This document shows positions 109-3,307 of a DNA stretch of 5,280 nucleotides, in pieces. The first letter of the stretch is position 1, and every line of letters starts with the position of its first letter. A program made the translations under genes and the position numbers. The DNA is from a virus. Its lineage: Duplodnaviria; Heunggongvirae; Uroviricota; Caudoviricetes. The stretch is from IMG/VR virus record IMGVR_UViG_2778261453_000016; one strand, 5' to 3'. The notes under the pieces were generated by a model, which searched no databases, was not told the DNA's origin, and saw nothing but the letters and a program-made list of their open reading frames with translations.

Positions 109-324
109 ATGAAATCAATGGATAAGTTAACAACAGGTATCGCCTATGGCACATCGGCTGGTAATGCTGGTTTCTGGGCATTGCAGTTACTCGATAAAGT
201 AACTCCGTCACAGTGGGCTGCAATCGGTGTGCTGGGTAGTCTGGTTTTTGGCCTGCTGACATATCTGACAAACCTTTATTTCAAGATTAAAGAAGACAGG
301 CGTAAGGTTGCGAGAAGAGAGTAA
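109..324 (+). CDS. Class II holin / pinholin (phage 21 S21-like), 71 aa, with dual-start motif
   Basis: Translation starts MKSMDK (Met1/Met4 dual start as in the S21 antiholin/holin pair). Two predicted TMDs: a Gly/Ala-rich TMD1 ([18 protein letters not shown]) and TMD2 ([23 protein letters not shown]), then a charged C-terminus ([13 protein letters not shown]). GAGG Shine-Dalgarno just upstream; stop TAA at 322-324. It is the first gene of the lysis cassette. Confidence 0.85.
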
Positions 325-328
325 TCCA

Positions 329-880
329 ATGACTCAAGACTATGAACTGGTTGTGAAAGGAGTTCGCAATTTTGAGAATAAAGTGGCGGTAACTGTAGCC
401 TTACGGGACAAAAAACACTTTGACGGTGAAATTTTTGACTTGGACATCTCGCTGGACCGTGTTGAAGGTGCCGCGCTGGAGTTTTATGAGGCAGCAGCCA
501 GAAGGAGCATCAGACAGGTCTTCCTGGATGTTGCTGCCGGGTTATGTGAAGGGGATGAGCAGTCGCCGGAAAAGCGCCCCATAATTTTAGAGGCGCAGAA
601 TGTGTGGATAACCTACAAAGGAAAGCTACCGGGAAGAATTACTGGTTCTCTGAAGACGCCACCGACGGCATTGCGGTCAGAAAAAGATGATATTGAATCG
701 CCCATTGAAAAACTGGAGGGCAGCGTCGCTGATCTGAATAAAAAATTGTCGGTGCTGATTCCTTCTGAAGATGAAAAAAAACGCCGCGATGAGCAGTTTG
801 CGGCGTTTTACGATTATTGCATTGAAGTTACTCGCAGGAATTTTGTGAAGATTTTTGAGGAGGGTAAATCTCTTCAGTAA
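329..880 (+). CDS. Hypothetical protein, N-terminal region YdfR/DUF1327-like (recollection-level assignment), 183 aa from ATG 329
   Basis: ORF track gives 308-880 from a TTG; the first ATG is at 329, preceded by a purine-rich stretch (GAGAAGAGAG), 4 nt after the holin stop. The N-terminus (MTQDYELVVKGVRNFENKV...GAALEFYEAAARRS) resembles the small prophage protein YdfR that sits between holin and lysozyme in E. coli Qin, as I recall it. The C-terminal ~110 aa are charged and have no family I recognise. Confidence 0.6.
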   Translation: MTQDYELVVKGVRNFENKVAVTVALRDKKHFDGEIFDLDISLDRVEGAALEFYEAAARRSIRQVFLDVAAGLCEGDEQSPEKRPIILEAQNVWITYKGKLPGRITGSLKTPPTALRSEKDDIESPIEKLEGSVADLNKKLSVLIPSEDEKKRRDEQFAAFYDYCIEVTRRNFVKIFEEGKSLQ

Positions 881-1201: not shown

Positions 1202-2229
<1,028 letters not shown>

Positions 2230-2412: not shown

Positions 2413-2441
2413 TTGCTATGGTTGGTTAATCATGCGTTAAT
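2413..2441 (+). promoter_or_regulatory. Candidate sigma70 promoter of the cold-shock gene (-35 TTGCTA, 17-bp spacer, -10 GTTAAT), with AT-rich upstream element
   Basis: Hexamers at 2413-2418 and 2436-2441. The layout resembles the cspA promoter (TTGCAT/CTTAAT as I recall it). It predicts a 5' UTR of about 140 nt, typical of CspA-family genes. A GGTTTGTTACAAA motif at 2448-2462 resembles the cspA cold box. Confidence 0.4.
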
Positions 2442-2589
2442 GGTGTTCTGGTTTGTTACAAAATTATCTGAAGCAGTCATTGTTATAATTTTATTATTTG
2501 TACCTCTTGAGATTTCCTTGTTGGTTTTTCTCTCTGATATTTTTTTTCGGACCATTCTGCCCAAGGGCTAACTTCTTCAAAAGGTAATA

Positions 2590-2805
2590 ATGATGTCTAA
2601 CAAAATGACTGGTTTAGTGAAATGGTTTAACCCTGAAAAAGGTTTTGGTTTCATCACGCCGAAAGATGGTAGCAAAGATGTGTTTGTCCATTTCTCAGCT
2701 ATTCAGAGCAACGATTTCAAAACGTTAACTGAGAATCAGGAAGTCGAATTTGGTATTGAGAACGGACCTAAAGGCCCCGCGGCTGTTCATGTTGTGGCAC
2801 TTTGA
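2590..2805 (+). CDS. cspI: CspA-family cold-shock protein (CspI/CspB-like), 70-71 aa
   Basis: Translation [41 protein letters not shown]... carries the RNP1 (KGFGFI) and RNP2 (VFVHF) motifs of the cold-shock domain. AAGG Shine-Dalgarno at 2581-2584. The true start may be the second ATG at 2593 (MSNKMTG). Paralog assignment (cspI versus cspB) is from memory and from synteny with the Qin prophage, and is not certain. Confidence 0.9.
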
Positions 2806-3004
2806 GGTAGAAAATATTACAAACCATATTCACTTTAGATGCCCGTGTTGCCATGGTTCTCAGTATAGAACATCATCTTTTGATGTTTCTGACAGGAATC
2901 CTTTCGGGGCAAAATGTATCTTTTGTAAATCAATGATGATTACATTTGATAATATTTCACAATACTTAAATGTTAGCCGTCTGTCGTTAGATTTAAGAAA
3001 GTGA
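2789..3004 (+). CDS. Hypothetical Cys-rich small protein (possible zinc-ribbon, C-x-C-C...C-x2-C), start uncertain
   Basis: ORF 2750-3004 (TTG start); the first ATG at 2789 overlaps the last 17 nt of the csp gene. It contains [12 protein letters not shown]...GAKCIFCKS. Its stop lies 6 nt before a strong intrinsic terminator. No clear Shine-Dalgarno, so translation would need coupling to csp. It may be non-coding 3' UTR. Confidence 0.3.
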
Positions 3005-3009
3005 AAATG

Positions 3010-3032
3010 AAGGCTCCTTCGGGAGCTTTTTT
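3010..3032 (+). terminator. Rho-independent terminator (8-bp stem incl. one G.U, UUCG tetraloop, T6 tract)
   Basis: AAGGCTCC-TTCG-GGAGCTTT followed by TTTTTT (T-run 3027-3032). An A-run on the 5' side means it could work in both directions. It probably ends the csp transcript. Confidence 0.75.
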
Positions 3033-3076
3033 GCTTAGTGTCTAGTCGATGGATACTCACATATTACGGTAACATT

Positions 3077-3307
3077 ATGAAAAAAATAATAGTTTTTTTT
3101 AACTCTGAACCAGCAATGGTAGTGCCAGTGATGACCGGAGTTAACACCATCATGCGTGAATATCCAAATGGCGAAACAACACACCTCACTGTAATGGCTG
3201 CAGGGTTTCCATCTCTGACCGGAGATCATAAAGTCATTTATGTAGCAGCGGATCGACATGTAACTTCAGAAGAAATTCTGGAAGCAGCAATGAGACTCTT
3301 GAATTGA
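3077..3307 (+). CDS. Hypothetical small prophage protein (76 aa from ATG 3077)
   Basis: ORF track 3038-3307. The internal ATG at 3077 gives MKKIIVFFNSEPAMVVPVMTGVNTIMREYPNGETTHLTVMAAGFPSLTGDHKVIYVAADRHVTSEEILEAAMRLLN. It lies just downstream of the terminator. Weak Shine-Dalgarno. No family recognised. Confidence 0.45.
   Translation: MKKIIVFFNSEPAMVVPVMTGVNTIMREYPNGETTHLTVMAAGFPSLTGDHKVIYVAADRHVTSEEILEAAMRLLN

Follow-up and report, generated by a model that had tools for sequence, protein, structure and literature searches.

The stretch from 2816 to 3004 of the window (the window being the whole 5,280-nucleotide piece of viral DNA that was analysed) is, with high confidence, the gene ynfQ, the Qin-prophage paralogue of the chromosomal gene ymcF. 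In the cold-inducible cspI mRNA it would be the second cistron, with translation starting at AUU 2816 by reinitiation and yielding a small protein with a CxxC...CxxC core. The gene is not new, because it is already found in RefSeq, in the Pfam family PF23641 and in a K-12 gene list, where it is placed between ynfR and rzpQ (PMC11551758); it adds nothing to the gene inventory. What retains interest is the function of the protein and the association of its ATT start codon with an intact upstream csp gene.

The window is the late/lysis region of a Qin-type lambdoid prophage of E. coli, having the gene order essQ, rrrQ, rzpQ, cspI, ynfQ, ynfN, gnsB. Megablast of the segment 2400-3400 matched 2,149 of 5,426 complete E. 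coli genomes, with identities of 90-100%. The RefSeq order in two matching genomes is essQ, ydfR, rrrQ, rzpQ, cspI, ynfQ/ymcF, (ynfR), ynfN, gnsB and, further on, the terminase. The cspI-ynfQ cassette is also present in active phages, among them Escherichia phage 2H10, mEp460, HannyBb and Tritos, in most records of which the small ynfQ frame has been left unannotated. The features of the region are as follows.

2435-2851, plus strand: match to the cspA-type thermoregulator mRNA model (5' untranslated region and csp coding region; Rfam RF01766).
2593-2805, plus strand: cspI, cold-shock protein of 70 amino acids, the first cistron (RefSeq; Pfam CSD; NCBIfam CspG/CspA models).
2789-2815, plus strand: ATG 2789 and a 9-codon extension, outside the conserved gene (haplotype counts; varies between genera).
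2804-2808, plus strand: Shine-Dalgarno sequence GAGGT of ynfQ, overlapping the cspI stop codon, 7-8 nt 5' of the ATT (direct reading).
2816-3004, plus strand: ynfQ (YmcF-like) coding region of 62 codons, from ATT 2816-2818 to the TGA stop at 3002-3004 (RefSeq; PF23641; dN/dS).
2840-2851, plus strand: first putative metal knuckle, Cys9-Pro-Cys11-Cys12, with Cys9 and Cys12 as the CxxC pair (invariant columns).
2915-2926, plus strand: second putative metal knuckle, Cys34-Ile-Phe-Cys37, within the invariant GAKCIFCK (alignment).
3007-3045, plus strand: ynfR remnant of 12 codons (21 in K-12), flagged "too short" in the RefSeq genome H2.
3009-3032, plus strand: intrinsic-terminator-like hairpin (five G-C-rich pairs, UUCG loop) followed by T6, ending the cspI-ynfQ bicistron.
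3077-3307, plus strand: ynfN, 76 amino acids, the next gene in the cold-shock cassette (RefSeq; phrog_3425, E 1e-55).

The cspI product matches the Pfam CSD model with an E value of 1.7e-31, and its reading frame closes at TGA 2803-2805. The match to the thermoregulator model RF01766 reaches 109.8 bits (gathering score 78; E 6e-29). This match extends about 46 nt beyond the cspI stop and covers the ribosome-binding site and start of ynfQ.

The frame of ynfQ is free of stop codons from ATG 2789 (or TTG 2750) to TGA 3002-3004 and carries the motifs CPCCH and GAKCIFCKS. Its length alone is marginal evidence of coding: stop-free runs of at least 71 codons arise in 4% of dinucleotide shuffles of 2789-3032, and runs of at least 62 codons in 11%. 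The coding status is established by comparative evidence from homologous sequences. The product matches PF23641 (YmcF-like) at 112.6 bits against a gathering cutoff of 27, with an E value of 9.9e-33, over model positions 1-61 of 62. In 66 unique 62-codon sequences from Enterobacterales, codons 5-44 have a dN/dS of 0.076 and the C-terminal tail one of 0.52, and the entropy is 1.20 at third codon positions versus 0.30 at first and 0.18 at second positions. The allele in the window differs from that of K-12 by 7 nt and 3 amino acids. The initial annotation, which had taken the Cys-rich frame for a real small protein gene and had named its conservation and dN/dS in homologous csp loci as a check, is borne out on this point, the core being conserved under purifying selection. 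It had also implied that the gene is unannotated, which applies to some phage records only.

A fortuitous frame within what is merely the cspI 3' untranslated region, or within a small RNA derived from it, would be compatible with the shuffled sequences that reach the same length and with a weak, sub-threshold match to the small RNA Atu_C8 (19 bits; gathering score 50). However, neither the strong purifying selection nor the codon-position signature would be expected of such a region, and the 62-residue length is kept in at least 20 genera that share a dedicated Pfam family. As judged from the selection acting on the codons, this reading is effectively refuted and its probability is negligible.

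The RefSeq label varies by genome, being either ynfQ ("cold-shock protein") or ymcF ("cold shock small protein YmcF"), and the name implies that the protein is induced by cold shock. The name ynfQ has been used twice: in Table 1 of VanOrsdel et al. 2018 it denotes a 37-amino-acid hydrophobic protein at 1632890. The first gene of the Qin region starting at 1632890 is ynfT (PMC11551758). Among the NCBIfam models, no YmcF-specific one matched the product. A literature search found neither a functional study of YmcF/YnfQ nor a primary report of its discovery or cold induction, and the protein is not mentioned in the Weaver 2019 preprint, in Baek 2017 or in Venturini 2020.

The RefSeq coding region, mapped onto the window, begins with ATT 2816, which lies 10 nt past the cspI stop, and the PF23641 match begins exactly at the residue encoded by this codon. 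In 22 aligned csp-linked loci the sequence T[AG]AGG occurs without exception 7-8 nt before the start. The aligned start codon is ATT in 61, ATC in 4 and ATG in 16 of 81 loci (80 from species-representative genomes, plus the window). Such an exchange between near-cognate codons and ATG at one aligned position is the behaviour of a true initiation codon.

The start had initially been placed at the first ATG of the frame, at 2789. Translation from there would give a 71-residue protein that begins within the end of cspI, overlaps it by 17 nt and has no Shine-Dalgarno sequence. The frame is indeed open from this ATG in the window, and some database entries, mainly from Citrobacter and one phage metagenome-assembled genome (MAG), have been called as 70-71 amino acids long with such an extension. 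However, this ATG is formed across the cspI codons CAT-GTT (His-Val) and hinges on synonymous csp codons (xAT-GTx versus AAC-GTx); in other genera it occurs only where csp has AAT-GTx instead of AAC-GTx. In the five nearest loci (L003-L007), one of which has a 100% identical ynfQ, the ATG is directly followed by TAG. Counts of haplotype-specific 41-mers gave 162 E. coli genomes with the open form ATG-TTG and 332 plus 1,575 with the closed form ATG-TAG, showing that the extension is closed in about 92% of the typed E. coli genomes that have the locus (1,907 of 2,069). The residues that the extension would encode after the csp stop vary across genera. Together with the Pfam domain and the RefSeq coding region, both of which begin at ATT 2816, these observations make a start at ATG 2789 very unlikely. 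The overlap of 17 nt and the missing Shine-Dalgarno sequence reported initially are properties of ATG 2789, which has no usable one, and not of the gene: with its start at ATT 2816 and GAGG(T) at 2804-2808, ynfQ neither overlaps cspI nor lacks a Shine-Dalgarno sequence. A naive first-ATG gene model is thus wrong here, the start being a near-cognate ATT whose Shine-Dalgarno sequence is situated inside the upstream stop, and the gene is still absent from the annotation of several deposited phage records.

The junction has the short-gap geometry of a termination-reinitiation pair, with a gap of 10 nt and a GAGG that overlaps the TGA of cspI. The csp-linked set, consisting of 52 loci with an intact csp plus that of Dickeya, was drawn from 87 loci. 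In 52 of these 53 the distance from stop to start is 9-11 nt, and in one it is 29 nt. Behind an intact csp the start codon is always ATT or ATC and never ATG (0 of about 53). The 16 loci with ATG, and four further lineages that were examined, all lack an intact csp. A csp remnant is still recognisable in the ATG lineages Klebsiella/Raoultella, Kluyvera and Citrobacter sedlakii. In Enterobacter, Leclercia and Silvania, and also in K. quasipneumoniae, the gene stands alone with an ATG and its own, stronger AGGAG. The exceptions are Pseudescherichia, Atlantibacter and Shimwellia, which have kept ATT without an intact csp. ATG has been gained roughly 4-5 times independently, the loci themselves being phylogenetically non-independent.

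Initiation at AUU has been found to proceed at about 1-2% of the level at AUG (bioRxiv 10.1101/063800), and AUU competes especially poorly at low temperature (PMC5499595). Being weak, and poorest in the cold, AUU would be an odd choice for de novo initiation on a cold-shock cistron. Taken with the occurrence of ATT or ATC behind csp and of ATG after csp loss, this suggests that ynfQ is translated mainly by reinitiation after cspI. Coupling of ynfQ translation to cspI by termination-reinitiation is therefore plausible, the sequence pattern behind it being correlative. Ribosomes that have just terminated on cspI would supply most of the initiation on ynfQ, and would initiate at AUU 2816 by way of the GAGG(U) Shine-Dalgarno sequence situated on the cspI stop. 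The weakness of the AUU would keep the output of YnfQ at a small fraction of that of CspI.

The main alternative is that ynfQ is translated from the same AUU 2816 by ordinary, Shine-Dalgarno-driven de novo initiation of 30S subunits, independently of cspI translation, with the AUU serving as an attenuator that is possibly sensitive to IF3. A usable Shine-Dalgarno sequence is present and no hairpin sequesters it. Moreover, the ATT retained without an intact upstream csp in Pseudescherichia, Atlantibacter and Shimwellia would fit such a mechanism, and infC and pcnB demonstrate that AUU is able to serve de novo. The E. coli genes infC and pcnB resemble ynfQ in having a conserved, non-canonical AUU start that works at about 1-2% of AUG. 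They differ from it in that both are initiated de novo, infC being autoregulated through IF3, whereas in ynfQ a very highly translated gene ends 10 nt before the AUU, and the AUU is replaced by AUG once that gene is lost. The absence of ATG from all of the roughly 53 csp-linked loci, despite its repeated appearance in lineages without csp, is not readily accounted for by de novo initiation, nor are the strictly kept distance of 9-11 nt and the poor performance of AUU in the cold. Initiation independent of cspI is thus a real possibility, albeit a less probable one than its opposite.

A different form of coupling, in which the passage of ribosomes over the upstream gene unmasks a sequestered ribosome-binding site, was considered and rejected. 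The fold of 2750-2860 is no better than that of shuffled sequences (z +0.46), and RNAalifold detected no conserved pairing at the Shine-Dalgarno sequence or the start in 22 csp-linked junctions. As there is no conserved hairpin masking the Shine-Dalgarno sequence, classical structure-unmasking coupling is unsupported. The initial proposal of coupling to csp is accordingly retained in part: coupling itself is made plausible by the ATT/ATC pattern, and the overlap of the two genes from which it had been argued is replaced by a reinitiation geometry.

The end of cspI reads CUU UGA G (CTT TGA at 2800-2805), which is the core of the programmed +1 frameshift site of prfB. The +1 frame UUU GAG GUA GAA AAU AUU (2800-2818) is open into ynfQ. 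A programmed frameshift at this site would produce a CspI-YnfQ fusion that joins a cold-shock domain to a zinc ribbon. The CUU UGA and the open +1 frame are common to all three E. coli haplotypes, and C. sedlakii provides one natural case of csp and ymcF fused in frame. However, the stimulatory Shine-Dalgarno sequence 3 nt upstream of CUU is missing, the upstream sequence being GTTGTGGCA. The site is not conserved either, its counterpart reading CUC UAA at the ymcF locus and CGC UAA or GUA UAA elsewhere. Since the gap between stop and start varies from 9 to 11 nt, the frame relation of the two genes differs between lineages. Frameshifting at this site is highly improbable, and a cspI-ynfQ fusion product is unlikely as a selected feature.

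In the C. sedlakii locus (L010, 1258-1686) a decayed csp is fused in frame to a YmcF-like open reading frame with an ATG start. Its csp has Trp11 changed to Glu, VFVHF changed to VFVPS and the C-terminus deleted. Having lost Trp11 and VFVHF, it looks like a pseudogene, which also diminishes the weight of this fusion as a precedent for frameshifting.

The hairpin that follows ynfQ has the stem GCTCC 3013-3017 / GGAGC 3022-3026 and the T6 run at 3027-3032, about 204 nt past the csp stop. The extended fold has an energy of -14.8 kcal/mol (z -2.8). A simple hairpin scan listed the 3013-3026 hairpin for the minus strand only. These measurements agree with the initial observation of a long interval, of about 200 nt, between csp and its terminator that is filled by the reading frame. 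In 56 of the 87 loci a hairpin and T run closely follow the YmcF-like stop, at a distance of about 30 nt or less in most, with differing stem sequences. No terminator was found between cspI and ynfQ, and, with the terminator situated past ynfQ, the csp terminator is common to both genes. In published transcriptomes cspI, ynfQ and ynfN are co-regulated (PMC11228462, PMC11728337), with ynfN co-induced (PMC11228462), and cspG and ymcF likewise move together (PMC11228462, PMC11728337, PMC10920338). Co-transcription of ynfQ with cspI, ending at a common terminator after ynfQ, is thus supported. The shared mRNA and the co-regulation also lend indirect support to the cold-shock induction of the protein that its RefSeq name suggests.

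The small gene ynfR begins 2 nt past the ynfQ stop and overlies the terminator hairpin. In K-12 it has 21 codons (L002, 3108-3173; MKAPSGAFLLGVYSMDTHILR), and in the window a TAT-to-TAG change shortens it to 12 codons. Because of its position over the hairpin, a full-length product would require read-through of the terminator. Tagged YnfR (YnfR-SPA) is induced by cold shock (PMC6001520).

The protein search returned 132 clusters, and PF23641 was present in all 120 of those listed. Among these, nearly all clusters bearing a name are called "cold-shock (small) protein", and the genera with PF23641 are Escherichia, Citrobacter, Salmonella, Klebsiella, Raoultella, Enterobacter, Kosakonia, Leclercia, Kluyvera, Atlantibacter, Shimwellia and Dickeya. 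An exhaustive profile search of 1.84 billion representatives gave 42 matches, all but two of them small stand-alone proteins, and added only Erwiniaceae (Pantoea, Erwinia, Winslowiella), Cedecea, Mangrovibacter, Phytobacter and Superficieibacter. The two remaining matches are repeat proteins (P0146 and P0154) in which the similarity is confined to "AKCIFSKS", and they were rejected as spurious. No informative domain fusion was present among the 42 matches. Both searches show the YmcF-like family to be narrow, restricted to Enterobacterales and always a small stand-alone protein. The family motifs CPxC-x-GSQ[YF]R-x-S and NP-x-GA-x-CIFCK are kept in distant members and are all present in the protein of the window.

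The closest known relative is YmcF of K-12, which is encoded downstream of cspG. It also has 62 residues and is 65-68% identical to the protein of the window. Its gene starts with ATT 10 nt past the csp stop, has a TAAGG/TGAGG Shine-Dalgarno sequence (L050, L051), and is followed by a terminator and then by a gene of the ymcE/ynfN type and one of the gnsA/gnsB type. It differs in its setting, ynfQ of the window following cspI, not cspG, in the late region of a Qin-type prophage.

YnfQ has 62 residues, five cysteines, three histidines and a pI of about 9.0. The invariant columns of the family are F7, C9, P10, C12, G14, S15, Q16, R18, S20, D23, N28, P29, G31, A32, K33, I35, F36, C37, K38 and M41. 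Cys9/Cys12 and Cys34/Cys37 are conserved family-wide, giving two CxxC knuckles with four putative Cys ligands, and Cys11 is dispensable, as the variable position of CPxC is occupied in distant members by A, K, T, H, R, Q, S or N. The protein thus appears to have a single, putative zinc-ribbon-like core formed by Cys9, Cys12, Cys34 and Cys37. This agrees with the possible zinc ribbon seen initially in CPCCH and CIFCK, whose CxxC...CxxC signature is present and conserved. The core of the AF2 model has pLDDT values of 86-90. Its best structural matches, which are weak, are to the zinc ribbons of TFIIE-alpha and TFIIB and to zinc-ribbon ribosomal proteins, with which it shares two CxxC knuckles flanking short beta strands. 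A sequence search of PDB chains gave only motif-level matches, to UvrA zinc fingers and to Rieske box II, with E values above 0.04.

The metal might instead be iron, bound either as a rubredoxin-like Fe(Cys)4 site or as an Fe-S centre using Cys11 and His13. An AF3 model of YnfQ has been described as having a rubredoxin-like topology and metal site with Fe2+ (PMC13348028, a 2026 review). The sequence CP-CHGSQY resembles Rieske box II, with a motif-level match to cytochrome b6f at E 0.07-0.2, and in close homologues the conservation of Cys11 and His13 is 90% or more. However, distant members replace both Cys11 (by A, K, T, H, R, Q, S or N) and His13 (by Q, L, G or S), leaving only four cysteines family-wide, and the Rieske/Fe-S reading of CPCCHGSQY was downgraded on these grounds. 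Only the box II-like CP(C)CHGSQY is present, and there is no box I (CxHxGC). No rubredoxin family, nor any Pfam family besides YmcF-like, matched at E values up to 0.1. Iron is therefore unlikely to be the metal, and the four-cysteine zinc-ribbon-like core is preferred.

Another small protein of the same prophage, YnfU/ECs_2282 (PF23499, NF047912), was compared with YnfQ. It too is small and basic (about 56 amino acids), has CxxC...CxxC at a similar spacing and is encoded near csp genes. There is, however, no detectable homology between the two: the NCBIfam match is 17 bits against a cutoff of 37, and the hhalign probability is 1.4%, so that a relationship was rejected. In Shimwellia blattae (L086, 411-1398) the YmcF-like gene has a YnfU-family gene (PF23499) and a CSD gene next to it in divergent orientation. 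This makes a second case of csp associated with an unrelated CxxC...CxxC small protein, comparable to cspB and ynfU in the Qin prophage of K-12.

YmcF/YnfQ is under very strong purifying selection and is seated in the cold-adaptation cassettes of lambdoid phages. The extreme conservation of two surface motifs, GSQYRxS being one of them, implies a specific macromolecular partner. With low confidence, this partner may be RNA or a part of the translation machinery, and YnfQ may act alongside Csp in the cold. By analogy, YnfQ/YmcF could be a dedicated zinc-ribbon partner of RNA chaperones of the CspG/CspI type, held at a fixed small fraction of Csp by reinitiation at AUU. This proposal is speculative and unlikely. 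Lin28 and the plant cold-shock domain proteins (CSDPs) combine a cold-shock domain with a CCHC zinc knuckle. As in cspI-ynfQ, a cold-shock domain is expressed together with a small Cys-rich zinc module; unlike them, cspI-ynfQ encodes two separate polypeptides, whose interaction is hypothetical, with a putative C4 ribbon instead of a CCHC knuckle. If the proposal were true, the pair would be a two-polypeptide bacterial analogue of these eukaryotic cold-shock-domain and zinc-knuckle proteins, reinitiation would bypass the poor de novo use of AUU at low temperature, and the loss of csp would be compensated by the change to AUG. The occurrence of ATT or ATC behind csp and of ATG after its loss provides in any case a testable hypothesis concerning a non-AUG start behind a very highly translated gene.

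Several minor features of the DNA were also observed. An out-of-frame open reading frame at 1883-2179 (plus strand) is embedded within rzpQ (1732-2229) and has a lipobox-like LTSC; from its sequence it looks like the Rz1-type spanin partner, rzoQ. A 190-codon open reading frame follows the holin at 308-880 (plus strand), where K-12 has the 103-amino-acid ydfR, and the same site in a near-identical genome is annotated as an incomplete pseudogene of the YdfR family. Three loci assigned to other bacteria, namely a Veillonella parvula MAG (L005), a Mucilaginibacter MAG (L049) and a Chryseobacterium sp. (L075), contain csp-ymcF/ynfQ DNA of enterobacterial origin, almost the same as that of E. coli, which is probably due to contamination or mis-binning.
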